A stretch of 54,717 nucleotides of DNA from an uncultured Bacilli bacterium (GTDB taxonomy: Bacteria; Bacillota_I; Bacilli_A; RF39; UBA660): NCBI GenBank assembly GCA_944358545.1, contig CALVRJ010000003.1, forward strand, positions 1 through 54,717, read 5' to 3'. Below, in pieces: positions 35,946-52,778 of the stretch. The position numbers were made by a program, and so were the translations under genes. Within the stretch, counting starts at the first letter, position 1. Each line of letters opens with the position of its first letter. The notes under the pieces were generated by a model that saw only the letters and a list, made by a program, of their open reading frames with translations, ran no database searches and was not told the DNA's origin.

Positions 35946-36829
35946 TAGTCTAATGTTATTAGTTCATAATCTCGAGAACCAACACCTAATTCAGCAGCCG
36001 CTTCAACAGTGTGAACACCATGAAGTGACTCGATTCTCTTAATTAATTTATCTTTTCCTGGGTCGGTACTGTTATAAACTAAGTCTAAACAAGCTTGGTC
36101 AACGGCTACAGGATCTAGGCTAGCTAAAATACCTATGTCTTGCATACAAGGTGCAGAAGCGTTTCCATCACAGTCACAATCAACTGAGATATTTTTCATA
36201 ACGTTGATAAACGCCATATTGCCTTTAAAATGATTAACAACACTTGAAGCAGCATCAGCCATTGCTTCTAAGAAGCGGTCTTGCTCTGGAAGGTTATTAA
36301 ACAATTCTTTTTGGTCATTTACTTTGCCGGCTGTATGAATTAGAGTTTTACCAGCAGATGAGGCGCAACCTATTGAAAGTTGTTTTAATGCTCCACCATA
36401 GCCACCCATAGCGTGTCCTTTGAAATGTGATAAAACTAACATGGAGTCGTAGTTAGCTAAATTTTTACCAACATAGTTTTTCTTTAATACTTTGCCGTTT
36501 GGAATGTCTAATTCTAAATCTGGTCCTTCAGCATCCATTAAATCAAATGGGAAGTATTTATCCCATTCATGGTCTTTGATTAGTTTTTTATGTTTTTCAG
36601 TAGAGTTTCTCGCACCAGCGTAAGCTGTATTACATTCTACTACTGTACCATTTACATGGTTAATAACCTCTTTAACAAATTCTGGTCTTAAATAATTTTG
36701 ATTACCGGCTTCTCCTGAGTGCATCTTGACAGCTACTTTGCCTGGTAATTTTTTACCTAAGGCTTCATATGCTTTAATGATATTTTCAGGAGTTATTTCT
36801 TTGATAAAATATACTTTTGATTTACTCAT
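35945..36829 (-). CDS. DUF362-family Fe-S protein
   Basis: VAVKMHSGE, VECNTAY, SHFKGH, GGALKQLSIG, DCDC, DPVAVDQAC. Confidence 0.88.
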   Translation of the reverse strand: MSKSKVYFIKEITPENIIKAYEALGKKLPGKVAVKMHSGEAGNQNYLRPEFVKEVINHVNGTVVECNTAYAGARNSTEKHKKLIKDHEWDKYFPFDLMDAEGPDLELDIPNGKVLKKNYVGKNLANYDSMLVLSHFKGHAMGGYGGALKQLSIGCASSAGKTLIHTAGKVNDQKELFNNLPEQDRFLEAMADAASSVVNHFKGNMAFINVMKNISVDCDCDGNASAPCMQDIGILASLDPVAVDQACLDLVYNSTDPGKDKLIKRIESLHGVHTVEAAAELGVGSRDYELITLD

Positions 36830-36926
36830 ATTTTCACCTTCCTACATGTATTATTTTACCACCTAGAGCTGACTTTATGTCAAGCTTTTTATTATTTATA
36901 ATTTAAAAGTGCGAAGTTTTAGCAAT

Positions 36927-37487
36927 TTACTTCACACTTTTATTTTTGATTTTTAATCTATCCAATTTAGAATAAACGTCATATAGGGCAACACTAGCGG
37001 CAGTAGAAACGTTTAGGGAATTAGCCATACCTAAAAGTGGAAGATGGATACAAACATCAGATAGGTTTAATAATTCTTTAGAAACACCATCGTACTCTCT
37101 TCCTAAGATTAAACAAACAGGTGATTTTGGATTAAAATTTCTATAATCTATACTATCATTTGTAACTTCCACTGCTACTATTTGAACGCCTTTTTGTTTT
37201 AATTTTGAAACTACTTCTTTAGCGTCTTCCACATATTCATAAGGTACCCACTTTTCAGCTCCTCTTGAACTGGATTTAATTTTTCTGTTTGGCATGTGAA
37301 TAGTATTTCCACAAATAAATACTTTTTTAACAAGTAATGAGTCTGCAAGTCTTAAAATTGTTCCAATATTATGGGCACATTTTAGACTGTCTAATATTAT
37401 ATAGATATCATTCCTTGGTATTTTCTTAAACTCTTCTCTCATTATTTTTTTCTCTCTGAGTTCTTCTTTACTTAGCTGGTAAGACAT
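36927..37487 (-). CDS. SpoU/TrmH-family RNA methyltransferase
   Basis: HNIGTILRLAD, ILGREYDGV, SLNVSTA. Confidence 0.9.
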   Translation of the reverse strand: MSYQLSKEELREKKIMREEFKKIPRNDIYIILDSLKCAHNIGTILRLADSLLVKKVFICGNTIHMPNRKIKSSSRGAEKWVPYEYVEDAKEVVSKLKQKGVQIVAVEVTNDSIDYRNFNPKSPVCLILGREYDGVSKELLNLSDVCIHLPLLGMANSLNVSTAASVALYDVYSKLDRLKIKNKSVK

Positions 37488-37503
37488 TAAAACACCTTCT
37501 TTT

Positions 37504-37932
37504 TTACATAGTTATTTTAAAAATATTACTTTTTATATCAATAATATTATCAATATTTATTTTATTATTAGATTCATCTGTAATTATTTTATTTATTTCA
37601 TCTATTTTCTTTATCTTTATATTTATGGTTTGATATGTGCCACCGCTTTTTTTTTGGTCTTTGATGAAGTAAGTAATTATTACTTGAGGTTTTGATTTAA
37701 TGTTTTCTTGGATAATGTTCAGTTTATAGTTTAATATGGATTTTAATCCTTCATCTAGTTCTATTTGTTTATCTGTAATTCTCGCGGTTTCTTTAATTTT
37801 TTCAGCGTAACCGGTTAAAGCAGAGAACGGAGCAAACTGGGCAGCCCGGTTTTCTAAAGTCATTCTGGGATGATTTTTAGATGTATGATGATGAAGGTTT
37901 ATGATATCTTTGTATTTATTCATGATGACCAC
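37504..37932 (-). CDS. YolD-like protein
   Basis: YKDIINL, RAAQFAPFSALTGY, ITYF...GGTY; overlaps the upstream Y-family polymerase. Confidence 0.85.
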   Translation of the reverse strand: MVIMNKYKDIINLHHHTSKNHPRMTLENRAAQFAPFSALTGYAEKIKETARITDKQIELDEGLKSILNYKLNIIQENIKSKPQVIITYFIKDQKKSGGTYQTINIKIKKIDEINKIITDESNNKINIDNIIDIKSNIFKITM

Positions 37933-39391
37933 CTATTTGTCTATTTCTTTCAATCATAGTTCCACCTTCTTCTAAGTTCATGCCTCTTAAAATCGAATTT
38001 TTACCAAATTTCTGTTTGATATTTAACATAACGTTTTGAAGTTTGCGTTCATTTTGTTCATCTTTTAATTCTAAATTTAATTCATTATTTTGATCTTTTA
38101 AGCTTGAAAAGAGATTAAACTGTTTATAGTTTTCTTTTGTGTTTTCTACTTTTTCACTACTTACGTTTACTGCACAGATATTTAGTCTTTTGACAAGCAT
38201 ATTTTTATTTACGATTTTATCATAAAGTTTTATAGAGGCATCCATGATTATTTTAGCTGATGAGGTTTTATGATCTAAAGTAATAGTTCCATGGGAATGT
38301 TTAGGTATTTTCCTTCCGTAATAGTCTATTTCATAATTACTTGTGTTTTGGCTTTTTATGTCATAACCTAAGGTAAGAGTTAGTTTGTCTGTAACTAATT
38401 TTTTAGAAACTAAATTTAAAGAGAGATTCTCAGCCATTTCTCTAATGATAAGTTTGGTTTGATTATAATCATACGGATACTGAAGGACTTGTCCTATACT
38501 TAGACTTTGAGATGATGGTTTATAGTTTTTGATATCTTTTAAGGTACATGGTTCATATCCCCAGGCGTGGTCGATTAAAAGCTCCGCGTTGACGCCAAAT
38601 AATTTATATAAAAGTTCTTCGTTTTGGACTGAGCAAAGGGCAATATCACCCATAGTATAGATTTTATATTTTTCAAGTTTCTCGGCAATTCCTTTACCTA
38701 CTCTCCAAATATCGGTTATTGGTTTATGATTCCACATTTTATAACGATAGTCCATTTCATTTAGGGCAGCAATTCTAACTCCATATTCATCAGCTTCTTC
38801 GTGTTTAGCTAAAACGTCCATGGCAACTTTAGCTAGAAAAAGATTGGTTCCAATGCCGCCTGTCGCAGTTATACCAGTATTATCATAGACGTCTTTTATC
38901 ATTTTTGTTACCAGTTTTTTGGGAGTTAAATTATAATATTTTAAATAATTGGTTAAATCAAAGAAGGCTTCATCGATGGAATAGACGTAGATATCTTCGC
39001 TTGAGATGTATTTTAAATAAGTATTATAAATTTTGGCAGAGATGTTTAGGTAATCTTTCATATGAGGAGGGGCTATAATAAATTCAAGTTCTTTAGTTTT
39101 GTCTTCAAGTTCTTCTTCGTTAAACGATTTACCTTTAAACGGTTTATAATTATTATTTTTCTTCCTTTGGTTATTTATTTCTTTTACTTTGCTTATTACT
39201 TCAAACAGTCTGGCTCTTCCAGGAATGCCATACTTTTTTAAGGAAGGACTGACAGCCAAACAAATTGTTTTTTCAGTTCTGGATTTATCGGCAACGACCA
39301 AATTGGTTTTTAGTGGGTCAAGTTTTCTTTTAACACATTCTACGGAAGCGTAAAAGCTTTTTAAGTCGATGCAGGCATAAACTTTTTCCAT
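37916..39391 (-). CDS. Y-family error-prone DNA polymerase (ImpB/MucB/UvrX-like)
   Basis: CIDLKSFYASVE, YSIDEAF, GIGTNLFLAK, WRVGKG. Confidence 0.93.
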   Translation of the reverse strand: MEKVYACIDLKSFYASVECVKRKLDPLKTNLVVADKSRTEKTICLAVSPSLKKYGIPGRARLFEVISKVKEINNQRKKNNNYKPFKGKSFNEEELEDKTKELEFIIAPPHMKDYLNISAKIYNTYLKYISSEDIYVYSIDEAFFDLTNYLKYYNLTPKKLVTKMIKDVYDNTGITATGGIGTNLFLAKVAMDVLAKHEEADEYGVRIAALNEMDYRYKMWNHKPITDIWRVGKGIAEKLEKYKIYTMGDIALCSVQNEELLYKLFGVNAELLIDHAWGYEPCTLKDIKNYKPSSQSLSIGQVLQYPYDYNQTKLIIREMAENLSLNLVSKKLVTDKLTLTLGYDIKSQNTSNYEIDYYGRKIPKHSHGTITLDHKTSSAKIIMDASIKLYDKIVNKNMLVKRLNICAVNVSSEKVENTKENYKQFNLFSSLKDQNNELNLELKDEQNERKLQNVMLNIKQKFGKNSILRGMNLEEGGTMIERNRQIGGHHE

Positions 39392-39408
39392 TTTTCTTCA
39401 CCAATTTA

Positions 39409-39437
39409 ATTTTACCACGAACAAATGTTTTGGTAAA
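39409..39437 (-). promoter_or_regulatory. LexA (Cheo) box inside the polymerase promoter
   Basis: CGAACAAATGTTTT at 39418-39431 fits Gram-positive CGAACRNRYGTTY; it lies in the spacer of TTTACC-17-TAAAAT (TGn extended). Confidence 0.8.
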
Positions 39438-39497
39438 GCTTTTTTACTTGGAAAATTTTTCCAAAAAAAATTAACTGAATATTTAATTTTCAAGGAC

Positions 39498-40253
39498 TTA
39501 TTCTTGCAGAAATAGTTCAGCTTCTTTTCTTATTGAGCAGGCTTTTTTAATAGCAAGGGCAGCAGCTTTTACAAGAATTTTATTGACTTCCCTAGCATTT
39601 TCAGGACATTTGTCTATACATCTCATACAAGAGATACATTTTTTAGGGTCGGCTTTAAAGTTTACAGGGTCAATGGCCTCAACTGGGCAGATTTTTGCAC
39701 AAATACTGCATTTAATGCATTTTTCGTTTGGTTTTGGAACTAAAGGGATTTTAGATGTTTTTTTATAAGGCCTGTTTCCAGGTATTTTAGCAATTTTATC
39801 TTGGTTTTTAGTTAAAATGTCTTTAGCAAACTCGGCAAGAATTTTTTCATCTTTTGCGTCTGGTCTACCAGATGCATATTTAGGAATTATCGAATGTCTA
39901 GCAACGGCAGATATTCCGGCGATGATTTTAAAGCCAGCATCTTTAGCAGCATCCTCCATCTCGGCCAAAGTATCTTCATAAGCCCGGTTCCCATAAACGC
40001 AGACGATAATTGCTTTGGCATTATTTCCATTAATTTGTTTAAGTCTTTCGATAGCTACTTGAGGCGCTCTTCCACCATATGAGGGCATAGCAATTATAGT
40101 TAAATCGTCTTGGATAATTGTTTGATTTTTAAAATTTAATTTAGGATTACATAAATCTATTTTTGTTATATCATCACTTAGATTTTTGGCGATAATACTA
40201 GCAACTTCTTCGGTCCTGCCAGTAGGACTAAATACTATTTTCTTTACTTTCAT
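39498..40253 (-). CDS. Flavodoxin-ferredoxin fusion (EFR1-like)
   Basis: FSPTGRT, PSYGGR, YGNRAYEDTL, two CxxCxxCxxxCP motifs. Confidence 0.9.
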   Translation of the reverse strand: MKVKKIVFSPTGRTEEVASIIAKNLSDDITKIDLCNPKLNFKNQTIIQDDLTIIAMPSYGGRAPQVAIERLKQINGNNAKAIIVCVYGNRAYEDTLAEMEDAAKDAGFKIIAGISAVARHSIIPKYASGRPDAKDEKILAEFAKDILTKNQDKIAKIPGNRPYKKTSKIPLVPKPNEKCIKCSICAKICPVEAIDPVNFKADPKKCISCMRCIDKCPENAREVNKILVKAAALAIKKACSIRKEAELFLQE

Positions 40254-40294
40254 GTTGTACCTCTATTATTTTAATTATAACAAAAAAGGATAGT

Positions 40295-41620
40295 TTATTC
40301 TACCCTACTTTGTTTATGAGCTGCTTTCCAAGCTTTAATTTTTTCTAAACGTTCCTTAAATCTGATTTCGTTACCTTTAGTTCCTGGTTTATAATATGTT
40401 TTGCCAATTAATGATGGTGGAAGACAGTCCATGGTTGTAAGTTTGGCTTCAGTATCATGGGCATATTGGTAACCTTTGCCATAACCTAAGTCTTTCATCA
40501 GTTTAGTTGGAGCGTTTCTAATAACTAAAGGAACAGGTTCAACTGATGTCTTTCGAGCATCTTTACTTGCAAGCATATAGGCAACATCGCAAGCATTTGA
40601 TTTTGGAGCAAGGGACATATAGATGACAGCTTCAGCTAAGTGAACGTTGCATTCTGGCATACCAATAAAATGACAAGCTTGGTAAACATTGATGGCAACG
40701 TTTAGAGCGTTTGTATCGGCAAGGCCAATATCTTCTGCGGCAAACCGGGTTATTCTTCTAGCAATATATAATGGGTCTTCGCCAGCTTCAAGCATTCTAG
40801 AAAGCCAGTAGACGGCAGCATCTGGGTCAGAGTTACGCATAGATTTGTGAAGAGCAGAAATGATGTTATAGTGTTCTTCACCGTTTTTATCGTATAAAAG
40901 TGTTTTTTTAGATATGCAGTCTTCAATTAAGTCTTTGGTTATCTTAATTACGCCATCTTTTTCTTCAGCATTTGTAACAATCATATCTAAAGTTGTTAAG
41001 GCACTTCTCGCATCTCCACTAGCAAATTCGGCAATTATTTTTAAATTTTCTTCGGAGATTTCTACTTTTTGGTTTCCAAAGCCTCTTTCGTCAGTAATTG
41101 CCCTTTTTAGTAAGGTTAAAAGGTCAGAAATAGACAATTCTTTTAAAACAAATACTCGGCAACGCGATAAAAGAGCGGAATTGATTTCGAATGACGGATT
41201 TTCAGTAGTTGCTCCAATTAAGATGATTGAGCCTTTTTCGACATACGGAAGAAAGGCATCTTGCTGGGCTTTATTAAACCGGTGAATTTCATCGACAAAG
41301 ACAATGGTTTTGACACCTAATTTTTTGTTTTCATCAGCTTCTTCCATGACTTTTTTGATTTCTTTAATGCCAGAGGTAACGGCTGAAAAGTTGATAAATT
41401 TGGATTTGGTTTCATGGGCGATAATCCGAGCTAAAGTTGTTTTACCAACGCCTGGGGGACCCCAGAAAATCATCGAAGATATATTATCGGTTTCAATCAT
41501 TTTTCTTAGAAGTTTACCTTCGCCGATTAAATGCGTTTGACCAGCAAATTCACTGAGGTCTTTTGGACGCATACGAGAAGCTAGTGGTTCGGAGTTTACG
41601 GCAAATAACGATTCTTGCAT
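40295..41620 (-). CDS. rarA: Replication-associated recombination protein A (RarA/MgsA)
   Basis: PLASRMRP, GPPGVGKTT, VDEIHRFNKAQQD, ISALHKSMRNSDPDAA. Confidence 0.96.
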   Translation of the reverse strand: MQESLFAVNSEPLASRMRPKDLSEFAGQTHLIGEGKLLRKMIETDNISSMIFWGPPGVGKTTLARIIAHETKSKFINFSAVTSGIKEIKKVMEEADENKKLGVKTIVFVDEIHRFNKAQQDAFLPYVEKGSIILIGATTENPSFEINSALLSRCRVFVLKELSISDLLTLLKRAITDERGFGNQKVEISEENLKIIAEFASGDARSALTTLDMIVTNAEEKDGVIKITKDLIEDCISKKTLLYDKNGEEHYNIISALHKSMRNSDPDAAVYWLSRMLEAGEDPLYIARRITRFAAEDIGLADTNALNVAINVYQACHFIGMPECNVHLAEAVIYMSLAPKSNACDVAYMLASKDARKTSVEPVPLVIRNAPTKLMKDLGYGKGYQYAHDTEAKLTTMDCLPPSLIGKTYYKPGTKGNEIRFKERLEKIKAWKAAHKQSRVE

Positions 41621-41635
41621 ATTTATTCCTTCTTT

Positions 41636-42670
41636 CTAATTATTATCTATTTTTCGAGCTATTTCTTCGGTTATTTTTCTTGGACCACGAATAGCTTTGA
41701 TTCCAAGATTATTTAAGGCTTGAAAGCTTATTTTACCCGGCTCATATTTTTTTAAGAGTTTTAAATGCATAATGTGTTTCATTGAAACGTTTTCATCTTG
41801 ATATGCATATGGAATGTTTACTTCGGTTACTTCACATTTATAAAGAACAGATGAGTAAGGACTGCCAACATATAAGTAAACTATATCTTTCACGTGAACA
41901 CTGCTAGATTGTTTCCAATTAATTGTTTTATCATGCTCAAAGTGAGTAATTATGTCATAATATTTAGGATTAGCCGGAACTATCCAATAATCTTTAGAGT
42001 TTACAAGGTTATAGGAAATGTCAATCAGTTTTTGAATTTTTTCATCTTCTAAGGTACCATCTAAAATAATACTAACCCAGTTTTGTTTGTTTAAATGGTA
42101 GGCAGGATATATTCCTTTGTGCTTTAAATATTTTGAAGTGTCATTATCTAATTTAAGGTCGATTATTTCACAGTTTCCTTCGCCTTTGGTAATTTTACTT
42201 TTATCTATACATACTACGAGGCCAAACCATTTACCATATTGATTTTTAAAAGCGGCATTGTTTTTCGCGTTTTCCCATAAAAATAATGGTTTTGTCTGAT
42301 ATTTTTTGATGATATATTCTGTTATTCTATTGGTCTGGTCATAAACAAAGTAATTTTCTTCAAAACAGTTTTCTTTTATATCTTTTAAGATATTTTTATA
42401 TGCTTCTTGAACGCTAATTACAAATGATCCAGGATGTTTTAATCTAATGTTAGGATATTCGTCTTTTGTTTCTAAATCATATACTTTACCGGATACTTTA
42501 CCTTGTTTATCTATAAATATTTGAGCGGTAAACTGGTTATTCATAAAGTTTTTAGTATAAATATAATCATCTTTATTTTTGAGAAAGCCATATGGCTTTA
42601 GTTTGGCAAATAAGACATGGGATTTTTTAAATACTTCTTCTTCAAGGTTCAAGATAATCACTTCCTTCAA
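41636..42670 (-). CDS. MmcQ/YjbR-family protein with C-terminal EVE/PUA-like domain
   Basis: KWFGLV, PAYHLNKQNWVSI; C-terminal YWIVPANPKYY...DIVYLYV; true start may be a few codons downstream. Confidence 0.75.
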   Translation of the reverse strand: MKEVIILNLEEEVFKKSHVLFAKLKPYGFLKNKDDYIYTKNFMNNQFTAQIFIDKQGKVSGKVYDLETKDEYPNIRLKHPGSFVISVQEAYKNILKDIKENCFEENYFVYDQTNRITEYIIKKYQTKPLFLWENAKNNAAFKNQYGKWFGLVVCIDKSKITKGEGNCEIIDLKLDNDTSKYLKHKGIYPAYHLNKQNWVSIILDGTLEDEKIQKLIDISYNLVNSKDYWIVPANPKYYDIITHFEHDKTINWKQSSSVHVKDIVYLYVGSPYSSVLYKCEVTEVNIPYAYQDENVSMKHIMHLKLLKKYEPGKISFQALNNLGIKAIRGPRKITEEIARKIDNN

Positions 42671-42837
42671 CTATATTTAATATACTATTTTTACAAAAAA
42701 AATCTAGTAGTTTTTTATTACTTACTAGTATATTTTTTGTACTAATATAAATTACTCAATAAAATTAAAAGCAATTTTATAGATGTTTAACTTAAAGATT
42801 CAGATGTTTAACCCTTAATTTTTGTTCAATAAAAAAT

Positions 42838-42853
42838 GGAGCCATATGGCTCC
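42838..42853 (-). terminator. Palindromic terminator-like hairpin
   Basis: Perfect 16-bp palindrome GGAGCCATATGGCTCC followed by a T-run on the minus strand. Confidence 0.6.
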
Positions 42854-42862
42854 TTCAGGGGG
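42847..42862 (-). other. Putative att site: 3'-terminal tRNA-like fragment
   Basis: Minus strand CCCCCTGAAGGAGCCA = T-stem half + 7-nt acceptor strand + G discriminator + CCA; no T-loop upstream. Confidence 0.45.
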
Positions 42863-42968
42863 CAATTTAATAAAAAAAGAGGATTATTAAAAATCCCCGT
42901 AATATCGACATACAATTCATTTTAAGTTTAACAAAATTTAACTAAAAAATGAGAAATTTAGCACAATT

Positions 42969-42989
42969 TGATGGGTAGCTGATGGGTAG
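42969..42989. repeat. Tandem 10-bp direct repeat TGATGGGTAG (integrase arm-site-like)
   Basis: Copies at 42969-42978 and 42980-42989, 11-bp period, about 110 bp from the att-like site. Confidence 0.6.
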
Positions 42990-43111
42990 AAATACTTATC
43001 AGATATTCCTTTTTTTATTATTTAATGACAATATGACATTATATATAGATATGGTACCAATATTTCAAATTACAGTGTTATATAGTGGTATAATACTATT
43101 AGGTGATTTAA

Positions 43112-44059
43112 ATGAGTTTTGTATATGCCAGAAAATTAAAAAATAAATTCTATATATTAGCTGATTCAAAAATAACTATTTCGGACGATGACTCTGATCG
43201 ACTTAAAATTAGAATTGGAGAAAAAGTATATAATGATTTAAAAAAATTTGGAGTAATAAAAAATGTAATAATCAACGAAAATATTTGTATTGCATCTGCT
43301 GGTGTTTTAGAAGACTTCAATGAATTATTAAAATATGTAGATACTCAAAAAATTAATGATATTAATTTAATATCACATCAAGCTTTAAACATTCATTTAC
43401 ATAATAATAAAAGAACTGATTTTATAATAGCAAAAATTGATACAAATAAAGAATTATTAGAAATTAAAAATGGAATTATATCAAAAGTAGAAACTTCATG
43501 GCTAGGTTCATACAATTGTTTTAATATATTTCAAAACATAAGACATGATAAAGTATTTAGAAATCAAATTGAAGATTCATATAGTGTACTTATAGAAGAA
43601 GATAAAAATAGAATTAATTATAATGAATTTCCACCTATAACAATAGATGATATTGAAAAAGATATAGACTTTAAAGCATTCGATAAAGCAGTAAAATCAA
43701 ATACAGATTTAACAGTTGGAGGATATATAGTAGAATGCATTGAACATCACAATAAATTTATGTATCCAGAATGCATTAATAGCACTGTAGAGAAACCACA
43801 AATTGTACCAAGTGACGGAGAAATTAATACTTATAACGAAGCTTCCGAAGGAGGATATACATATCATGCATATGAATCAAACAATAATTTTAAATTATAT
43901 ATTTATCAAATGAAAAAAGGAATTATATATGAACCAAACATTAATGATCCTAAATATAATCATTTAAGACTGCCTAAAATATATAACATGAAATTAGATG
44001 ATTTCATAAAAAATAATAATATAAAACAATCAATAACTATTAATATAGAATATGAATAA
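43112..44059 (+). CDS. Proteasome-beta/HslV-like Ntn-hydrolase candidate
   Basis: After Met removal: Ser1, Asp17 (ADSKIT), Lys49 and Gly63 (14 apart, as K33/G47), LGS, DLTVGG; extended -10 TGGTATAAT and AGGTGA RBS. Confidence 0.6.
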   Translation: MSFVYARKLKNKFYILADSKITISDDDSDRLKIRIGEKVYNDLKKFGVIKNVIINENICIASAGVLEDFNELLKYVDTQKINDINLISHQALNIHLHNNKRTDFIIAKIDTNKELLEIKNGIISKVETSWLGSYNCFNIFQNIRHDKVFRNQIEDSYSVLIEEDKNRINYNEFPPITIDDIEKDIDFKAFDKAVKSNTDLTVGGYIVECIEHHNKFMYPECINSTVEKPQIVPSDGEINTYNEASEGGYTYHAYESNNNFKLYIYQMKKGIIYEPNINDPKYNHLRLPKIYNMKLDDFIKNNNIKQSITINIEYE

Positions 44060-44159
44060 ATGCAATAAAAAAAGAGAATCAACGGATTCCCTATAGAATC
44101 GGCATATAACTCACATTGAGTTTATTAAATTTAAAATGTAATTATTAACACAATTTTAT

Positions 44160-44203
44160 GAGCAATTGATGTTTATAAATACTCGTCAGCTGCTCATTTT
44201 TTT
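44160..44203 (+). terminator. Terminator between the convergent Ntn-like and TIR genes
   Basis: GAGCAATTGA...TCAGCTGCTC imperfect stem followed by a T-run. Confidence 0.5.
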
Positions 44204-44221
44204 AAATAATATTATACAATC

Positions 44222-44737
44222 TTATAATTGATTATATTCTTTCAATTTTCTAGAATTATCAATATTATTTGATTTAAGTATTCTATTATTAAAAGCTTCT
44301 TCTATTATCTGAGATAATTGATATGAATTTGTTGGATAATTATATAATTTTGCATAACCTGATTTTACATTATCTAACAACCTATCAGGAATAGGAGTAT
44401 TAAATTGATTACATCCTGGCAAAAAAATTCCTACTAGTCCACTTCTTTTATTATTTTGATCATTTCTTAATGTAGAAGCTATCTCCCAATCTACATATTT
44501 TCTTTTATAAGTTTCTTTTCCAATCATAACAATAGTAACCGTAGAATCAGTTAAATAGTTTTCCCTTATAACACGCATAGTATATTCTGGATTGTTACTA
44601 TTAATTTCGGTTCCATATTCATTACCAACAATTCTTTTAATAAATGTATTCTCGTAAGAATTAGAATACTTTGTTACAAAATTACACACCTCATAATCAT
44701 CTTTATGATGATATGATATAAAAACTTTATGTTGCAT
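44222..44737 (-). CDS. ThsB-like TIR domain protein (DUF1863-type)
   Basis: KVFISYHH, STVTIVMIG, VDWEI with catalytic Glu, C-terminal IDNSR. Confidence 0.88.
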   Translation of the reverse strand: MQHKVFISYHHKDDYEVCNFVTKYSNSYENTFIKRIVGNEYGTEINSNNPEYTMRVIRENYLTDSTVTIVMIGKETYKRKYVDWEIASTLRNDQNNKRSGLVGIFLPGCNQFNTPIPDRLLDNVKSGYAKLYNYPTNSYQLSQIIEEAFNNRILKSNNIDNSRKLKEYNQL

Positions 44738-44738
44738 A

Positions 44739-45344
44739 TTATTTACTCCTTATCTCATCTAATTTCATTGTTAAATCAACAATCTTTACGTTAACTTTTT
44801 TAATGTCATCAATGATTTCATTATATTTTGGATATCTTTTTTGTATTTCTTGTGGATCTTCATCAGTATTTTTTTCAAGTTCTTTTTCGTACCATTTTCT
44901 GAATCTTGCTTGATATTTGGTTAAATGATTTCTTAAATCCGTATTTAATACCTCTATTAATAGATTGACCAATTTATTCACTTCTTTATCATTGTTTCCA
45001 GCTAATTCTTTAATAATAGTTCTAAATTGATTATATATTGAATACCAAGAATCATAAACCTCAGCAATTACATCATTTTCCGGATCAAAAGGAAGTGCTA
45101 ATTTTCGAGTAATTAATTCTGTCCATGCTTTATGTGCAATTTGCTTTACTTCCTTATTGCATCCAATATCTATTGTTACACCTTTTATACATATTTGTGA
45201 AACACTTATACTTTTAACCTTTTTTATTTTTTTTATTATCTTTACAATACATAAAATACATAAAATAATTATCGGCAATAGGACTACTATATTATCTAAA
45301 CCTATTGTTATTTTATATTTTGATAAAAATTTTAATATATCCAT
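44739..45344 (-). CDS. Hypothetical single-pass membrane protein coupled to the TIR gene
   Basis: Hydrophobic IVVLLPIIILCILCIV then a helical soluble domain; stop codon 1 nt before the TIR ATG. Confidence 0.75.
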   Translation of the reverse strand: MDILKFLSKYKITIGLDNIVVLLPIIILCILCIVKIIKKIKKVKSISVSQICIKGVTIDIGCNKEVKQIAHKAWTELITRKLALPFDPENDVIAEVYDSWYSIYNQFRTIIKELAGNNDKEVNKLVNLLIEVLNTDLRNHLTKYQARFRKWYEKELEKNTDEDPQEIQKRYPKYNEIIDDIKKVNVKIVDLTMKLDEIRSK

Positions 45345-45368
45345 TTACCTCTACCCTCCTAAAATAAT

Positions 45369-47162
45369 CTATAAAGAATAATAGTATTCTTTAATCTTAT
45401 TAGCCATCAATATTCTACGTTGTTTTAAGAATTCATCAAAATCATTAACTGTCATATTTTCAAATCCATCTGGTATGCAATTGATTTTCAAATTCTGATT
45501 TAACAATTCTTTATCAATAATTGATCCAATAGTAGCTTCACCATTTTTACATTGTTCATTTATCTCTAACATATAAGCATTTGGCGCTTTATTTGTTATT
45601 TGTAAATTTATTTCTGTTTGTATTAATGCAAAATTAGCAATTTGATTATAAATGCTCTTATTATTCTTCCCGTTCTTCTGTAGATAGTCTTTAGGGAATA
45701 TATGATGTACATCTCCTCTGCCTTCTACCAGTGTTCTCACTTTCATATCTTTAGATAAGAATGCACTATCATTTAAAGATATTTGGGCAATTAAATATGT
45801 TTTCCAATAAGGAGAACTTGCTACGGGAGTATTAAAGTTTTCGACTAAAATACTATTCCAGAAAGCATCACCTAAACGTCTTTCTAATTCTTCATTAATA
45901 TATTGAACTAAATCTTCTGCTTCATTTAATCTTCTAATATCTAAATCAAATTGTGATTCTGGAGATGAAGTGTATCTTTGTGTAATTATAGACATAATTA
46001 CCCATCTCTTAACAAGTCTTTCAATAATATTTGGAGCTATATTCCTTTCTCTTAACAGTAAAAATAAAATATATCCAAAATTTAGTACATTTTTAGATCT
46101 TAATAATGAATCATCTATTATTCCAGCTGATTTTAAAATCATTACATATCTTTCAAAATTAGTTTGACTAACAAAAGATTTTACTCCATCATATAGTTTG
46201 GTATAACTATCCTCTACTATATCTTCTCTATATTCTCTTGTTTCAAAATCACGACCAGATAGCAAAGAAACTAAATCCTGTAATTTACCTCTTTTGAACT
46301 TATAAGTAAAAGCAACTCTTAATACATCTACATAACTTGGTAAAAATAAATCTTCATTTTTATCTTTTATCCATGATATCTTATTAAATATTTCTTTTTT
46401 ACTAAAATCAATATCATTATTTTTTATATTTTCATAATCAACAGGTGTTTTTGCAAAATGACAAAAATAATCAATTGCTTTTCTTATATCATTTCCTTCA
46501 TATTTTTCATTAACACTAATCTTACTCATTGCAAAATCTGCTTGAGAAAGAACCACACCAGCAGAATTTATTCTTACAAATATTTCTGTTACCGTTTCAA
46601 TATCTAACATAGACCCTAATTCTATTCTGCCAATCATTATATTCTTTATAGATTGTAATTTAGTAATTTTTTTACTTAATTCATTTGCATCTAAATTAAA
46701 CTTTTGAGAATAATTACTAATAAATTCAAATGTGTTAAAACCAGGTTTCATAACTTCAGAAATATCAGAAATCCATTCTTCTTGCTTTTCAATAGCTGGA
46801 TTACAAGTTTGAAATTCCTCTGTTTGAATGTTAAAAGCGATCTTTATTCTTTTTTTCTTATAATTGTCATCTAATACTTCTTCTCCTAATAATGATGCCG
46901 TTAAAGCTGTAATTCTTTGCTGACCATCTATTAATATTTGCTTACCTTCTGATGCAGATCCGTCTTTTAATTTTACATCTGGACTTTTCCATGTAATTAT
47001 ATAGCCTACAGGATATTCTCTATATAAAGAATCAATCAAATCTCTAACTTTAGTTGTATCCCATACAAAAGGTCTTTGTATTTCAGGTATAGCAATAGTC
47101 CCATCATTAACATATCCCAAAAGAGTTTCCACACTTACATTGTTAACATCAAATTTTGCCAT
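45369..47162 (-). CDS. GmrSD-like type IV restriction protein (DUF262 + C-terminal HNH-like DUF1524)
   Basis: IPEIQRPFVW, LIDGQQR, FVRINS; C-terminal DVHHIFPK...IANFAL. Confidence 0.88.
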   Translation of the reverse strand: MAKFDVNNVSVETLLGYVNDGTIAIPEIQRPFVWDTTKVRDLIDSLYREYPVGYIITWKSPDVKLKDGSASEGKQILIDGQQRITALTASLLGEEVLDDNYKKKRIKIAFNIQTEEFQTCNPAIEKQEEWISDISEVMKPGFNTFEFISNYSQKFNLDANELSKKITKLQSIKNIMIGRIELGSMLDIETVTEIFVRINSAGVVLSQADFAMSKISVNEKYEGNDIRKAIDYFCHFAKTPVDYENIKNNDIDFSKKEIFNKISWIKDKNEDLFLPSYVDVLRVAFTYKFKRGKLQDLVSLLSGRDFETREYREDIVEDSYTKLYDGVKSFVSQTNFERYVMILKSAGIIDDSLLRSKNVLNFGYILFLLLRERNIAPNIIERLVKRWVIMSIITQRYTSSPESQFDLDIRRLNEAEDLVQYINEELERRLGDAFWNSILVENFNTPVASSPYWKTYLIAQISLNDSAFLSKDMKVRTLVEGRGDVHHIFPKDYLQKNGKNNKSIYNQIANFALIQTEINLQITNKAPNAYMLEINEQCKNGEATIGSIIDKELLNQNLKINCIPDGFENMTVNDFDEFLKQRRILMANKIKEYYYSL

Positions 47163-47177
47163 TTTTTCACCACTTTC

Positions 47178-50100
47178 TTACATTTCTTTTATTGAATTTT
47201 CAATATGTTCAATTTCTTCATCAGTTAATTCATATTTCAAATATAATTGTTGATCTATTTCTTTTATTGACTTACTCCAATCAATATCAGAGTTTTCTGA
47301 AATATCTTGAATAGGAACATAATCAAATGTCTTTGATGTTGCATCTTGACTACTTTTTAATAAACTATGTAAATATCTTAAAAATTTTGTTTTTAAATAT
47401 TTTGATAAATTATTAGCTTCATTTTCAGTCATTCCTAAATCTGCGCCTATAGTTAAATATGATTCAGTACAAATAGTATTAGGTTCTCCGACAAAAGAAT
47501 TCATATTATCATCATTTAACTCAGTTCCAATATTATTAGCACGAGGAATAAATACTTTCCAATTGTTAACCCATTCATTATGATTTAAAATGTTTTTAGC
47601 ATTTGTAAATTTAATATTCTTTCCTTTTATATAGCACTTAATATTATTAGTTTTACTTTTGTCATCCACTAAATTTTTACTTCTAGCAAAGTTACCATCT
47701 AAACCAAAAGGTTTTCTTGATGAAACCAAGTCAGAAAAACTTCTAAAAAATTCATTTTCTTTAATTTTTAAAAGTATAGATTCTGCATGATTATCTCTTA
47801 TAAAAACATTATCATCAAATAGTTTCATATTTCTATACATATCACTCACTATATTATTATCTTTTCGTGAAATAACTCTAACTTTGCTATCTTGGTTATT
47901 GTACTCTTTATCCCATAAAAGATAACAAACACCACCACGATTATTTGTGTTAGGAAAAATATCTTCAGGTGTTAAACAATCATTTATTTCTTTAATATTA
48001 ATGTCATTTAACATAGAAATTCTAAAATCGTCTAAACCTTTTCCGCCAACATACCATCTTGATGGAATAATTAAAGAGATGTATTTATTAGCAATGCTTC
48101 TGCTTATATTAACAAAATCACTATATATTGGTCTTGCACTTGCACCAGCTCCACCATCTGCTTCTTGATATGGAGGATTACCAACAACAATATCAAACTT
48201 CATTTTTCCATCTCCTTCCACATATAACAAATTATCTTCTAACATAATCTCTGACATTTTTTTATTTTGTAATAAATATTTTTTTATTTTATTTAAATCT
48301 AAATTGTTATTTTCTTTAATGTTAAGTAAATCATACGATGTAAAACTTGTTGCAATATTTTCTACATTCAAATTTAAAATCTCATATACTTTTCTTGTAA
48401 ACTCATATGCAATTTTAGATGTAGGTATCGAATATAAACAGTTATTAATCAATTCTTCATTTAAATTTAATTGTTTTAATTTAGAATACATTGCTATAAT
48501 GAATTCTCCTTCTTTACTAGCAATATCTAAAATATTTGAACCGGAATTTACCACATTTATAATATCACTATCTGGTATTGTAGATATCATTTTATTACAT
48601 ATTTTATTTGGTGTAATTATTTCTGAATCAGATAATTTGTCAAATTTATTTATAGCTATTAACGCTCTATCTATTTTATTTAATGATTCATCATTTGATA
48701 ATTTATTGATGTTTTGTATTTTATAATCTAGTTGACTCAAAACAAACGGATCAATATTTTCATAAATTAATTTTAATATATTAATGTCTAACTCTAAATT
48801 CATTAAAATTCTTTGATTATTTGAATCTTCATATGTGCCAATAATATTTTTTAATGAACTTAGTTTACTATCTGATAAGAAAGAATAAAACAAAATTCTG
48901 ACATAATAAGTTTTAAATTTATTAATAATAATTTTCTTTAAATCATTACTATCAGTAGTATTATTTGACGAATTGTTTTGAGTATCATTGTTTTGATTTT
49001 CTAATTCATCATCAAATTCTAATGATAATTCTTCAAAATCGTCTACTTCATCATCTGTATTAACTAGTTTTAAACCACCTTTTGAACCAAGCTCAGCCTG
49101 TTTCAATATTATTTCTCTTATTTCATCTATATTTAATAACTTAAAGTCAACAGGCAAAGCGTTTGATTCATCAAGAACACTTCTTGAATTTGAATAATTA
49201 CTAATATAGTTCATAATATCTATTGCTGTTATTTGTTTTAATTTATTACTATCAAAAACAATAATCGGTGAAATATTCAATTCATTTTCTAATCTATCTT
49301 TTAATTTATCGTTACCATTATTTTCAGTATTAACATTGTAAATTAAAGACTTTGTTTCTTGCATTATAAACATTCTATTTGGATTAAAATCAACTAATAA
49401 TGTTTGTGGTTTCTTATTATATTTAATAATGTCACCATCTTCAGATACATATTCTTTTACATATTGATTTTGTAACCTAAAAATTGCTTGATCATATTCT
49501 TGTGGAGATGATGTATCTTTCAAATAAATCATTGTGTCCCATTCTTCGACAGTGCTTCCTGTTAACATTCTGTTAACGGTTAAAGTTATTGTTTTTTTAT
49601 TGTTTCTTTCACAATTTTTAATTGCATATTTTATATCATTTATATTTCTATAGGAATTAGATTCATCAACTCCTGAAATATTAATAATTTCATATTCATT
49701 TAAATTTTTAAATTTATCTTTATTGTCTTTTATTAACTTTTCAAACGAATCACATGAAGCACAAAATGGTAAGACTACTACAATATGTCTGCACATTTTT
49801 CCTTCTTTTATTTTATCAAAATCTAAAAAGCCTAATACTTCATCATCATTTTTACTTCCATCAATAACTTCTAATAAATCTAATATTTCAGTTTCATATT
49901 TAAATTTTTGATGTTTCCCTTCAGAATTTTTTGTTATTGATAAAGGTCTAAACAATTCAGAAAAAGCATATGTTATTCCTAATTTCTTTAATTCTAGTAA
50001 TTTTTCTCTAATTGATTTATTTGGATTAAATGCAAATCTAACCATTTGTGGAAAACCATAATAAGGATTTTCCCATTCTTTGTATGAATCATCTAATATA

Positions 50101-51206
50101 TGTTCCTTATCCCAATCTGACTGTGCTTTTACAATATCTGGAAATTGATAGAAACCAATTATATCTTCTTTTTCAAATTCAGAACCCATTAAAATTCTAT
50201 ACGGAGTACCAGATAAGTGAATTCTAACTTTAGATTTTAATACTTTTACAATATTATCAGCATCTTCAAAATTTATATTTTCATCTTCTCTGGTATCTCT
50301 AACATCTCTTAATACAGCGCCATAACTCTCAGCTCTTGCACCAAAGTGTGTTTCATCGATTAGTAATAAATCTATTTGATTGTTAAATAGTTCTTGGTGT
50401 TTTTCTTTTATTTTAGTCCCTTGTAAATCTTGTAGTGTCAAAAATACAACAACTTTTCTACCATTTGTTAGTTTATTTTTTATAATTTTGTTATCTCTTA
50501 ATAATTGTTCACTTTCAATAAAATCATATTCTTTAAAATTTTCAGCACTTTGTACAGTCTTCTTCCACTCTTCTTTTACATCAGCTTTTGCTGAAACTAT
50601 TAAAACTACATTTGCATCCATTTCTAATGCACAGCACATTGATGTAAAACTCTTTCCAAATCTCATAACAGCATATAATAATAAATTTGTTCTACCTGCT
50701 GCATATGCTTTTTTAAAATTATTTACTACTTCTAGTTGGTTAGGTCTTAATTTCCAAATGCCTGTAGAAGCATATTCTGTGATTACTCTAAGATTATCAT
50801 TAGCATTATAAAATTGATATTTCATTAAATTTTCTTCAAAATCTCTTTTTATATCTTTGATGGCATCATCTATGTCAGATACGGAAGTTCCTTTAAAGAA
50901 CTCATTTGAAAAATAAATATTTTCATCAATATCTTTAGATGTTAATCTTTCTTTTTGTAAATCATTTTCTAAAAATTGATGTACAGAATAATCCCTAAAA
51001 AATATATCTTCTGATACCATAGCTTTAGTATCATATTTTTTTTCTAATTCGGGATAATGTTTTTTCCATTCATCTAATCTTACTGATACAGGTCTATAAG
51101 TGTCACCAATCTTTATATAATTAGGTACTGTATTTGTAGTAAAAGCATATATATGTGGTTCAACACGCCCAACAATAATTTTATCTAATAAGCTCAAATC
51201 TTTCAT
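47178..51206 (-). CDS. GIY-YIG/T5orf172-like nuclease - SF2 helicase - N6-adenine MTase - TRD fusion
   Basis: HIYAF...YIKIGDT...R; MRFGKS, IDETH, SGTPY, QAIFR; ILDIASKEG, FDIVVGNPPYQ; KVFIPRANN-type C-terminus. Confidence 0.85.
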   Translation of the reverse strand: MKDLSLLDKIIVGRVEPHIYAFTTNTVPNYIKIGDTYRPVSVRLDEWKKHYPELEKKYDTKAMVSEDIFFRDYSVHQFLENDLQKERLTSKDIDENIYFSNEFFKGTSVSDIDDAIKDIKRDFEENLMKYQFYNANDNLRVITEYASTGIWKLRPNQLEVVNNFKKAYAAGRTNLLLYAVMRFGKSFTSMCCALEMDANVVLIVSAKADVKEEWKKTVQSAENFKEYDFIESEQLLRDNKIIKNKLTNGRKVVVFLTLQDLQGTKIKEKHQELFNNQIDLLLIDETHFGARAESYGAVLRDVRDTREDENINFEDADNIVKVLKSKVRIHLSGTPYRILMGSEFEKEDIIGFYQFPDIVKAQSDWDKEHILDDSYKEWENPYYGFPQMVRFAFNPNKSIREKLLELKKLGITYAFSELFRPLSITKNSEGKHQKFKYETEILDLLEVIDGSKNDDEVLGFLDFDKIKEGKMCRHIVVVLPFCASCDSFEKLIKDNKDKFKNLNEYEIINISGVDESNSYRNINDIKYAIKNCERNNKKTITLTVNRMLTGSTVEEWDTMIYLKDTSSPQEYDQAIFRLQNQYVKEYVSEDGDIIKYNKKPQTLLVDFNPNRMFIMQETKSLIYNVNTENNGNDKLKDRLENELNISPIIVFDSNKLKQITAIDIMNYISNYSNSRSVLDESNALPVDFKLLNIDEIREIILKQAELGSKGGLKLVNTDDEVDDFEELSLEFDDELENQNNDTQNNSSNNTTDSNDLKKIIINKFKTYYVRILFYSFLSDSKLSSLKNIIGTYEDSNNQRILMNLELDINILKLIYENIDPFVLSQLDYKIQNINKLSNDESLNKIDRALIAINKFDKLSDSEIITPNKICNKMISTIPDSDIINVVNSGSNILDIASKEGEFIIAMYSKLKQLNLNEELINNCLYSIPTSKIAYEFTRKVYEILNLNVENIATSFTSYDLLNIKENNNLDLNKIKKYLLQNKKMSEIMLEDNLLYVEGDGKMKFDIVVGNPPYQEADGGAGASARPIYSDFVNISRSIANKYISLIIPSRWYVGGKGLDDFRISMLNDINIKEINDCLTPEDIFPNTNNRGGVCYLLWDKEYNNQDSKVRVISRKDNNIVSDMYRNMKLFDDNVFIRDNHAESILLKIKENEFFRSFSDLVSSRKPFGLDGNFARSKNLVDDKSKTNNIKCYIKGKNIKFTNAKNILNHNEWVNNWKVFIPRANNIGTELNDDNMNSFVGEPNTICTESYLTIGADLGMTENEANNLSKYLKTKFLRYLHSLLKSSQDATSKTFDYVPIQDISENSDIDWSKSIKEIDQQLYLKYELTDEEIEHIENSIKEM

Positions 51207-51221
51207 ATGATACCTCTCTTT

Positions 51222-52187
51222 CTACTTAATTAAAGATATAAATTTTATACTTCTATTAGTTTTCCAATTCATAACTTTGCAATAAATCCCATTGTGATTT
51301 TTAGGTTTATTTTTTTTGCATCCTAAACATTCTTCATTATGTTCAATATCTCCAAATAAAGTTAATTCGATTTTTTTTTCATTTTTGCAACTATTTGGAA
51401 TGACAAATTTTAATCCATCCATTTGCCAAATGTTCCAACTTATTATCTCAGCTATTTTTTTTACTAATTCTATATTTGGTTTTTTATTAAATTTATCCTT
51501 ATAATAATCAATAAAAGTATATAATAAATTTTCTCTTGCAATTAAAACATTATCTCCTTGCCAATCATATCCATAAACGCTTTTCATTGCTTTAATCGAC
51601 CATTCTACCCATTCTGATTCATCATTCGCATTTTCTGAAACTATTCTTAACTTTCTATCTAACAATCCAATTCTATTTTTTATTTTTATGCTTTTACCTG
51701 TTACTGAATCATATCTGCTTACAAGATATGGTGCTTCGCCACATGAAATTTCTAATCTCGTACTATTAATATAATCTTGCCATGTTTTGCTTTCAGGAAA
51801 ATATATCTTTTCTTCTACTGTTTCCCAGCTATCTTTGTTAGATTTATTAAATACAATATCTCGTTCGAACCAAGCCTCGTCTACTAAATTGTTTTGATTA
51901 TTACAAATCCATGAAGGGGTGAAAACTTCTGCATTTTCTTTTATTCTTTTATTTTTTTCTTGAGCTGATTTTTTTGATCTTGGCTTTATTACTTCTCTAT
52001 AATTACCAGTTATCTTATCAACTGTAATTTCATCTTCAAAATTAAATCTATTACCATATTCCTTATAATTATCCGTTGCCCAAATAATATTTTTTTTACT
52101 ACTATGATCAAACAGAAGTATATTTAAAATTTCAGCATCAACTAATAATAAGTTTTCCTCTTTTACATCAACTAATTCTCTAAACAA
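51222..52187 (-). CDS. RM-associated methyltransferase-like subunit lacking the catalytic NPPY motif
   Basis: IIWATD, AEVFTPSW, LEISCGEAPYL, YGYDWQGD, WQMDG; no (D/N)PP(Y/F); Cys/His-rich C-terminus. Confidence 0.8.
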   Translation of the reverse strand: MFRELVDVKEENLLLVDAEILNILLFDHSSKKNIIWATDNYKEYGNRFNFEDEITVDKITGNYREVIKPRSKKSAQEKNKRIKENAEVFTPSWICNNQNNLVDEAWFERDIVFNKSNKDSWETVEEKIYFPESKTWQDYINSTRLEISCGEAPYLVSRYDSVTGKSIKIKNRIGLLDRKLRIVSENANDESEWVEWSIKAMKSVYGYDWQGDNVLIARENLLYTFIDYYKDKFNKKPNIELVKKIAEIISWNIWQMDGLKFVIPNSCKNEKKIELTLFGDIEHNEECLGCKKNKPKNHNGIYCKVMNWKTNRSIKFISLIK

Positions 52188-52216
52188 GTTTTCACCTCCC
52201 TGACATTTTTATTTAA

Positions 52217-52738
52217 CTAAAAATCTTTTGGCAATTTGCTGTAATCATATTTATTTTGAGCTTTTACCAATTCATCAAAAGCATATTTTATATCTTCTAT
52301 AGCTTTATCTATCGTATATAAACTATCTTTGTTTTCTTGCATTAATTTTAAATGTTCCATAGTATAAAATAATTTTCCTCTTGCATCATTCACTACTGCT
52401 CTTTTTTTAGCATCCCAATCTAATAAATCTAATTGGGACTTTTTATATCTTTCTATCATATCTTTTAAATCCCTTGTGGATTTATTTTTATATCTATCTA
52501 ATGATAAATAATCAAGAAATTCGTCATATCCTGCTACTTTTAATAACTTTTTTAAAGATAAGTCTAATGTTTCAGCTATCTTTTTTAATGCATCTACATC
52601 TATTTTTTTTATTTTACCATTAATAATATCATTTAAAGTACTTCTACTGATTCCTGATAACTTTGCAAGTTCTCTTTGTGATATTCCTTTAGCTTCTCTA
52701 GCACTTTCAATAATACTTTTAAGTTCTTCTGAATTCAT
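52217..52738 (-). CDS. XRE-family HTH repressor
   Basis: REAKGISQRELAKLSGISRSTLNDIING; start re-placed at ATG 52738. Confidence 0.9.
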   Translation of the reverse strand: MNSEELKSIIESAREAKGISQRELAKLSGISRSTLNDIINGKIKKIDVDALKKIAETLDLSLKKLLKVAGYDEFLDYLSLDRYKNKSTRDLKDMIERYKKSQLDLLDWDAKKRAVVNDARGKLFYTMEHLKLMQENKDSLYTIDKAIEDIKYAFDELVKAQNKYDYSKLPKDF

Positions 52739-52778
52739 ATATTCACTTCTTTCTCCCATTTTTTCTTCTTCTTAACTA

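Follow-up and report, generated by a model that had tools for sequence, protein, structure and literature searches.

A predicted proteasome-fold serine Ntn hydrolase family with a connectase-like lid site and a mobile, defence-associated gene context

We analysed a 54,717-nucleotide stretch of DNA from an uncultured Bacilli bacterium (the window), in which an uninterrupted open reading frame (ORF) at 43112..44059 (+) encodes a 315-residue protein, P0001; position 43112 is the first start codon past the upstream in-frame stop. Its structure model assigns P0001, which stands alone, to a family that Pfam does not cover, within the proteasome-beta/HslV (MEROPS T1-like) superfamily of N-terminal nucleophile (Ntn) hydrolases. 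The gene is the first inside attL, the left attachment site of an integrative mobilizable element at a recG terminator. A proteasome-type fold and active site are highly probable, and the gene is very likely an accessory one carried by a mobile or defence island. Taken together, sequence, model and analogy lean modestly towards an enzyme that works without ATP, either hydrolysing peptide bonds of specific substrates or acting on them as a transpeptidase, in conflicts involving phages or mobile elements. What is described here is a Ser-Ntn family of proteasome fold that has a connectase-like lid site, a C-terminal subdomain peculiar to it and a documented link to mobile and defence loci.

The assignment comes from structure prediction. 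An AlphaFold2 (AF2) model of P0001, computed from an alignment of 28 sequences, reached a mean predicted local distance difference test score (pLDDT) of 87.2 and a predicted template modelling score (pTM) of 0.85. When this model was compared with the PDB by Foldseek, the top 50 matches were all 20S proteasome subunits, nearly all of them beta subunits. The best match, 6bdf_1 from Thermoplasma acidophilum, had an E-value of 6.7e-9 and a probability of 1.00, and the template modelling score to the target reached 0.70 among the matches. A preliminary description of this DNA, made from the sequence, had proposed a proteasome-type Ntn sandwich, and this is the fold predicted by the model. Among predicted viral structures (BFVD), the top matches of P0001 were phage HslV and proteasome-like proteins. 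Comparison with sequence libraries was silent: no credible match to P0001 was found in Pfam, NCBIfam, PHROGs or PADLOC, PF00227 (Proteasome) did not match it at E<=1, and PDB sequence searches with P0001 and with a close-family profile returned nothing relevant. A wide-family profile searched against PDB sequences found TPR (tetratricopeptide repeat) proteins only, matched via the fused tails of some relatives.

P0001 belongs to a sizeable family. A word-indexed search recovered 28 relatives at 39-50% identity, and an exhaustive phmmer search recovered 261 representative clusters at E<=1e-3. Named relatives are labelled 'hypothetical' or 'tetratricopeptide repeat protein', and all those with a listed origin come from metagenome-assembled genomes (MAGs) or metagenome assemblies (Bacilli, Tenericutes, Clostridia, Oscillospiraceae, Tectomicrobia). 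A metagenome scan for relatives yielded six loci, mostly short.

The motif residues of P0001, numbered with Met1 counted, are S2, A17-D18-S19-K20, K50, S62-A63-G64, W130-L-G-S133 and D199-L-T-V-G-G204. The motifs S1, A16-D17-S18-K19, K49 and SAG63, which the preliminary description had read in mature numbering, all lie where it placed them, and the spacing of 14 residues between K50 and G64 matches that of proteasome Lys33 and Gly47. Residue register was set with hhalign, used solely for this purpose, against Thermoplasmata beta subunits (reference P0233; the sequence used to retrieve these subunits is 98% identical to a database protein); the alignment of the wide-family core was collinear across 181 columns. 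Conservation was counted in 148 full-length members drawn from 50%-identity representatives and selected for S or T at position 2; before this selection, about 162 of 177 sequences began M-S or M-T.

Ser2 (codon 43115..43117, +) is the predicted N-terminal nucleophile, Ser1 after Met removal. It is Ser in 133/148 members and Thr in 15/148, and an ungapped extension of the hhalign alignment brings it onto Thr1 of the Thermoplasma beta subunit. P0001 has no propeptide, and its chain opens Met-Ser. All family alignments begin with residue 1, so conservation extends to where the chain starts, as expected of a propeptide-free Ntn enzyme. Methionine aminopeptidase removes Met before Ser, and from this rule we infer that loss of Met1 exposes Ser1.

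The remaining catalytic positions follow in proteasome order. D18-S19-K20 (43163..43171, +) corresponds to Asp/Glu17-Thr/Ser18-Arg19, with D18 placed on Glu17 by hhalign; the first position is Asp in 145/148 members and Glu in 3, the second is Thr or Ser in 130/148, and the third is Lys or Arg in 138/148. K50 (43259..43261, +), the equivalent of the catalytic Lys33, is conserved in all but one of the 148 and is paired with K41 of P0233 (Lys33 in mature numbering). A63-G64 (43298..43303, +), equivalent to Ala46-Gly47 of the oxyanion hole, was matched to A54-G55 of P0233 by each of the two hhalign runs (Ala 142/148, Gly 141/148). W130-L131-G132 (43499..43507, +) marks the start of helix H3 in the Gly128-Ser129-Gly130 region, and here Trp is found in 141/148 members and Gly in every one (148/148). 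Finally, D199-L-T-V202-G203-G204 (43706..43723, +) corresponds to Asp166-x-x-Ser169-Gly170-Gly and aligns with D174-S-A-S177-G178 of P0233. In this motif V202 is kept in 140/148 members, G203 in 121/148 and G204 in 110/148; the Asp166 equivalent is split over two columns, with Asp at 199 in 69/148 and Asp or Glu at 200 in 64/148. With S/T at position 2 preselected, homologues thus conserve S1, D17 and K49 of the mature protein (D18 and K50 at the counts given above).

Helices H1-H4 of the proteasome core are kept in the P0001 model (H1/H2 at residues 66-79 and 84-97), and two insertions are added to it. The first, a two-helix insertion at residues ~22-46 (43175..43249, +), lies between the Asp17 and Lys33 strands, where the hhalign alignment has a gap; in the model, DSSP assigns helices to residues 25-35 and 37-46, and the sequence is variable across the family. 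This insertion is a candidate active-site lid. The second, at residues ~147-177 (43550..43642, +), falls between H3 and H4, where it is a gap relative to proteasome beta subunits, and is modelled as an additional helix (147-166) that leads into a loop of low confidence. H3/H4 insertions could block double-ring assembly, according to Fuchs et al. (PMC8665760). The protein had also been described as ATPase-less, and this agrees with what surrounds it: no ATPase adjoins P0001, its genome has no PF00227 gene, and at the homologue loci examined an AAA+ gene neither lies next to the Ntn gene nor recurs as a conserved neighbour. Because the insertions are present and an ATPase is not, a barrel-type protease fed by an unfoldase is argued against.

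Downstream of the Ntn core, a conserved C-terminal beta subdomain (residues ~236-301; 43817..44014, +) with a G247-G248-Y249 motif is modelled as four strands and one helix. Its best-kept positions are G247 (147/148), Y/F249 (140/148), P288 (125/148) and Q266 (123/148). Modelled alone (pLDDT 74), the subdomain had no significant fold match in the PDB, the best having an E-value of 0.94. The preliminary description gave the C-terminal extension as about 110 residues; it is in fact ~80 (residues ~234-315), and the remaining extra length is that of the two internal insertions. In 37 of 129 diverse relatives (~30%) the C-terminus carries TPR repeats, which points to protein or peptide ligands. These fused relatives (P0050, P0053, P0066, P0073, P0137 and others) have 2-6 repeats and a total length of 350-500 residues.

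The 20S proteasome beta subunit of Thermoplasma acidophilum (MEROPS T1A, PF00227) is the best structural match of P0001. The nucleophile, Asp/Glu17, Lys33, Gly47 and the Asp166..Gly170 turn occur in the same order and spacing in both, and H1-H4 are shared. In contrast to the beta subunit, which uses Thr1, P0001 has Ser1 and lacks a propeptide, an alpha subunit and a PF00227 match. It further differs in having Val for Ser169, no conserved Ser129, the two insertions, the extra C-terminal beta subdomain and a location on a mobile island.

Several features of P0001 recall connectase, known as MJ_0548 in M. jannaschii and MM_2909 in M. mazei (PMC7980362). In M. jannaschii the active-site residue is Ser1, as an S1A mutant shows, and connectase is monomeric, ATP-independent and highly sequence-specific (PMC7980362). 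Its 293 residues comprise an Ntn domain of ~200 residues followed by a C-terminal beta domain (PMC7980362). Connectase and the family PMI-6 have a two-helix insertion at S3/S4; that of connectase is mobile, lies over the active site and confers specificity, and connectase is without helices H1/H2 (PMC8665760). P0001 shares with connectase Ser1, the site of the two-helix S3/S4 insertion, a C-terminal beta domain and a similar length (315 vs 293 residues), but it keeps the H1/H2 helices that connectase is missing. Moreover, connectase is confined to methanogenic archaea and has MtrA as its substrate (KDPGA), whereas the P0001 family is bacterial and resides on mobile islands. No sequence similarity between P0001 and connectase was found in the PDB sequence searches.

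HslV works with the HslU ATPase, which is encoded adjacent to it, and CodW (ClpQ) of Bacillus has been reported as an N-terminal serine protease. Like these, P0001 is a bacterial proteasome homologue, but it differs in its length of 315 residues, its two insertions, its C-terminal domain, the absence of an AAA+ neighbour and its accessory context. HslV itself has ~175 residues and no insertions, and group I proteins are compact (PMC8665760).

The closest published company is the set of 22 uncharacterised proteasome homologue families reported by Fuchs, Alva & Lupas in 2021, for which no function-suggesting genomic context was found (PMC8665760). These families are likewise distant and Pfam-poor, keep a conserved set of catalytic residues and lack an ATPase partner; the P0001 family is set apart by its consistent mobile/defence context. 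By architecture the nearest is PMI-6, which combines the two-helix S3/S4 insertion with an H3/H4 insertion (PMC8665760), the same two sites as in P0001. By taxonomy the nearest are FC1-FC5, which are Firmicute-specific clusters (PMC8665760). Both likenesses, to PMI-6 and to FC1-FC5, are drawn from the published descriptions. Full-text literature searches found nothing relevant on a tie between defence islands or anti-phage systems and either proteasome homologues or Ntn hydrolases.

The genome that harbours P0001 is a 1.38-Mb gut MAG of Bacilli/'Tenericutes' type. The Ntn gene is absent from 36/36 congeneric species genomes and present in 1/24 more distant relatives, and the corresponding empty site is seen in the congener G024, where the gene order is DinB - MgsA - YjbR-like - recG-like. 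The recG-like gene of the host genome (G000) sits on a separate contig, C54. The G024 intergenic region follows the window to 42862 and then picks up at C54:2438. This comparison places attL (recG terminator hairpin plus core), TGGAGCCATATGGCTCCTTCAGGGGG, at 42837..42862, with no strand assigned. An imperfect direct repeat of it on C54, TGGAGCCTTGCGGCTCCTTCAGGGGG, is 88% identical, giving 26-bp att repeats, and both element junctions bear the recG terminator hairpin plus CTTCAGGGGG. The C54 end of the element encodes a tyrosine integrase in two overlapping ORFs, a CHAT-domain protein and a MobV (Mob_Pre) relaxase; the split of the integrase is either a frameshift or an assembly error. That P0001 is element cargo, as the preliminary description suggested, is borne out by its place inside att-bounded DNA, the empty site in G024, and the integrase and relaxase at the other end. 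The G+C fraction is 0.23-0.27 in 2-kb intervals across 42001-52000, compared with 0.30-0.35 across 28001-42000.

The element spans window positions 42837-54717 plus C54:2424-6729, and a contig break hides its middle. P0001 has the YjbR-like gene on one side and a TIR gene on the other. Beyond it lies minus-strand cargo (44222..52759, -), assigned by Pfam and PADLOC: a ThsB-like TIR protein, a transmembrane (TM) protein, GmrSD, a type IIG restriction-modification enzyme, a 321-residue ORF without assignment and, at 52217-52759, an Xre-type helix-turn-helix (HTH) gene. An AAA_25 protein follows towards the end of the window. Most of the cargo in view consists of defence genes. On C54, the CHAT (caspase-like) protein at C54:3847-4893 (-) adjoins the element integrase; it has 348 residues and a long, lysine-rich coiled-coil N-terminus. 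Ntn-bearing islands were also seen at the same type of site, recG terminator hairpin plus CTTCAGGGGG, at L019:4560-5979 and L016:~9506. The L019 integrase is 36-45% identical to the split C54 integrase, which suggests a family of recG-targeting elements exchanging defence cargo.

The local signals around P0001 bear on its expression. A ribosome-binding site, AGGTGA (43101-43106, +), is visible 5 nt before the start codon, preceded by an extended -10-like TGgTATAAT (43086-43094, +). The preliminary description had given the gene an extended -10 promoter of its own; the motif is indeed present, but it has no -35 element, is for that reason unlisted by the promoter scan, and has no statistical support, as promoter-like sites in this AT-rich stretch number 22 vs 17.9 +/- 4.6 in shuffles, that is, no excess. 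Transcription of P0001 from its own promoter is thus plausible but unproven. P0001 and the TIR gene (44222..44737, -) converge, as the preliminary description noted, with a terminator-like hairpin between them (44073-44092, -) that ends the convergent minus-strand defence operon. Two more hairpins lie just inside attL, upstream of P0001 (42879-42898, -, and 42979-43002, +), one of which resembles a minus-strand terminator. An Rfam scan of 42600-44300 gave zero matches. No substantial coding was found on the strand opposite P0001, and no credible small partner ORF up- or downstream of it.

The ThsB-like TIR gene (Pfam ThsB_TIR, E 3e-18) begins 1 nt past that of a 201-residue protein with an N-terminal TM segment, the two occupying 44222-45344 (-). 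No ThsA is present, and the 201-residue protein has no family match; judged by sequence, the two may form a Thoeris-like pair with a membrane effector. A functional tie between P0001 and this TIR protein was considered and set aside: the genes are convergent, and no annotated TIR gene lies beside a homologue at the other loci examined. In Thoeris, the effector gene next to ThsB is co-oriented and co-occurring with it, whereas P0001 is neither relative to the TIR gene.

The link of homologues to mobile or defence loci held up when the relatives were examined. All close relatives with readable neighbourhoods lie among defence or mobility genes, which across the family include McrBC/Dcm, Lamassu-like, Tmn/YobI, KAP/PifA-like, PDC-S06, PDC-M36A, type I restriction-modification, MmeI, GmrSD and TIR genes. 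Two Dcm genes, McrBC, an AAA and S8 peptidase pair, SymE and an integrase accompany the Ntn gene at L001; Lamassu-like genes (LmuB_C/MC3/CTD7) and a serine recombinase at L005; Fic and a serine recombinase at L015; and PDC-S06 and DUF6119 at L016. A large serine recombinase is directly upstream at L013 and L023, and YobI/Tmn-like and KAP/PifA-like NTPases are found on either flank at L018. L019 has recG-att-integrase, DpnII, PLD, a DUF3427 helicase, NUDIX and a reverse transcriptase, and L021 has a type I restriction-modification system, SRA-NOV_C and NUDIX. PDC-M36A is present at L014 and McrBC at L025. The AAA ATPase and Peptidase_S8 genes of L001 (L001:10855-14107) lie directly downstream of a MazG-Ntn-helicase block, and this pair is reminiscent of the Iet system of Gao et al.

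More distant relatives of the P0357 type (27% identity) form a fixed cassette in which the Ntn gene is preceded, at a distance of 16 bp and in the same orientation, by an Xre-type HTH gene of 80 codons (L033:7186-8310, L034:4444-5568 and L035:6608-7732). The cassette is bordered by YpsA plus MmeI (or a large helicase) on one side and by a Gp49/HTH toxin-antitoxin-like pair on the other, with an integrase near; the left-hand neighbours differ among the three loci.

At a minimum of seven distinct loci (>=7), the Ntn gene sits between a gene for a 104-residue MazG-like protein and one for a 624-residue PD-(D/E)xK/DUF2075 helicase scored AbiO/Nhi-like by PADLOC, with gaps of ~10-30 bp. The Ntn genes in this slot form one clade (support 98/99), with P0001 outside it, and neither the MazG-like nor the Nhi-like helicase gene was found in the host genome of P0001. 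We considered an obligate MazG-like/Ntn/Nhi-like trio and rejected it, as the flanking pair is far commoner than the Ntn gene, is usually adjacent and takes other inserts, including AbiU2. The Nhi-like helicase occurs in 81/399 genomes of the class (~20%) vs 2/61 for the Ntn gene. At 30 helicase loci inspected, the Ntn gene was present in none, and the MazG-like gene was adjacent (0-15 bp) in nine and downstream in five. Other occupants of the slot are a HEPN_AbiU2 gene (L045:923-1489; Pfam E 3e-13), an unrelated 165-residue ORF (L047:1017-1514) and 1.2 kb of other DNA (L074:3343-4548). Since the MazG/helicase pair is usually adjacent or holds other inserts, the Ntn gene is a passenger of a variable defence slot and not an obligate partner, which fits its solitary occurrence elsewhere. 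Its behaviour resembles that of Abi genes: HEPN_AbiU2 fills in another genome the same slot as the Ntn genes do, and both kinds of gene are also solitary in defence islands and integrative elements. The fold and chemistry of AbiU2 are, however, unrelated to those of the Ntn family.

Some observations weigh against a proteasome-type enzyme with a defence role. The hhalign comparisons with Thermoplasmata beta subunits gave E-values of 0.26 (close family) and 0.1 (wide-family core), neither significant, so homology to proteasome beta subunits rests on the structure match. PF00227 was matched by 1 of 129 relatives (E 0.0015). The canonical proteasome set named in the preliminary description is kept in part: the equivalents of Asp17, Lys33 and Gly47 are near-invariant, but those of Ser129 (L/I131 or A/S129 are found there) and Ser169 (replaced by V202) are not kept. 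As for context, the distant member P0355 adjoins Smc/Hsp70-like genes and not defence genes, and the defence link is guilt by association, drawn without matched control loci.

The role that we favour, an ATP-independent enzyme acting on specific proteins, could be envisaged as follows. Methionine aminopeptidase would expose Ser1, whose hydroxyl would attack the amide bond of a peptide, the predicted base being Lys49 together with the free alpha-amine and the predicted oxyanion hole Gly63. The preliminary description had suggested an anti-phage protease, a deconjugase or a transpeptidase, and each of these is a candidate activity. By analogy with connectase, the two-helix insertion may act as a lid that narrows substrate choice. 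The enzyme might then cleave or religate one or a few specific proteins of phage, host or rival element, and the effect would serve the element or its host in phage/mobile-element conflict, via direct inhibition or abortive infection. Taken on its own, an anti-phage or conflict function is a serious possibility that we stop just short of calling likely. A more specific proposal, which we put forward tentatively, is that this Ser-Ntn homologue is a single-gene anti-phage (abortive-infection-type) system built on a lid-gated, ATP-independent protease or connectase-like transpeptidase. Here the lid and the C-terminal beta subdomain (or the TPR repeats of fused relatives) would sense a phage-encoded or infection-induced protein, and a specific target would then be cut or religated, stopping infection.

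Among the alternatives, we first considered that P0001 serves the mobile element as a regulatory protease which, by ImmA-/CapP-like logic, cleaves an HTH repressor or regulator and so switches on the element or a neighbouring defence operon, with no phage target under attack. The P0357 clade, with its HTH gene 16 bp upstream in three loci with differing left-hand neighbours, would suit such a role, as would the Xre-type HTH repressor encoded by the element in the window and the position of P0001 at the element's edge. Yet no HTH gene adjoins the Ntn gene in the window, at the other solo loci or in the MazG-slot clade, and the HTH gene in the window is 8 kb off on the other strand. TPR fusions and a slot shared with AbiU2 better fit an effector or sensor, and we consider a regulatory protease unlikely.

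It is improbable that P0001 is an amidohydrolase and not a protease, with a substrate other than protein (for example a DNA or nucleotide modification in amide linkage, a signalling molecule or a cell-wall peptide). Such an amidohydrolase would be in keeping with the nucleic-acid setting of the clade between the dCTPase-like MazG and the nuclease-helicase, with a conserved C-terminal subdomain that has no known fold match, and with the many non-protease amidases of the Ntn superfamily (PMC8665760). However, the MazG/helicase link is that of a variable slot without obligate partnership, the Thr/Ser1-Asp17-Lys33-Gly47 set belongs to the proteasome branch, which cleaves peptide bonds, and TPR, a module that binds proteins and peptides, is fused to ~30% of relatives.

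We think it similarly doubtful that P0001 is a counter-defence or inter-element competition factor, with which the element destroys proteins of the host or of rival elements for its own gain. P0001 does lie at the edge of a mobilizable element, and related proteasome-like families occur in phages, namely PPH and AAH (PMC8665760) and the BFVD matches. Against this, a search of 2.9 million viral contigs in IMG/VR found zero relatives of P0001, and its neighbours are defence and not anti-defence genes, with the slot shared with an Abi gene.

PF00227 was found in 0/361 sampled genomes (61 + 300) of the window's class and phylum, with a positive Bacillus subtilis control; either these are small-genome lineages without HslV or the sampling is narrow. 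The host genome likewise has no PF00227 gene, and with no other proteasome-family gene there P0001 could in principle be a substitute, a housekeeping HslV-like quality-control peptidase near the island by chance, but this is very improbable for a gene that is absent from 36/36 congeners and 59/60 other relatives, sits inside att-bounded foreign DNA of lower G+C content, has no ATPase partner and encodes insertions and a C-terminal domain unlike HslV.

The family shows a consistent context, made up of mobilizable elements bounded by att sites, of defence islands and of an exchangeable defence slot shared with AbiU2, and this consistency makes the function of the family directly testable. To our knowledge, no function is known for bacterial proteasome homologues other than HslV, Anbu, BPH and connectase. 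The connectase-like features of P0001 (Ser1, the two-helix insertion site and the C-terminal beta domain) also make the family a candidate source of new sequence-specific protein ligases or proteases for biotechnology. If it proves to be a single-gene anti-phage system, the proteasome fold would gain its first immune function in bacteria, and an orphan branch of proteasome homologues would acquire a role; a protease or transpeptidase serving immunity would represent a new enzymatic fold among bacterial defences.

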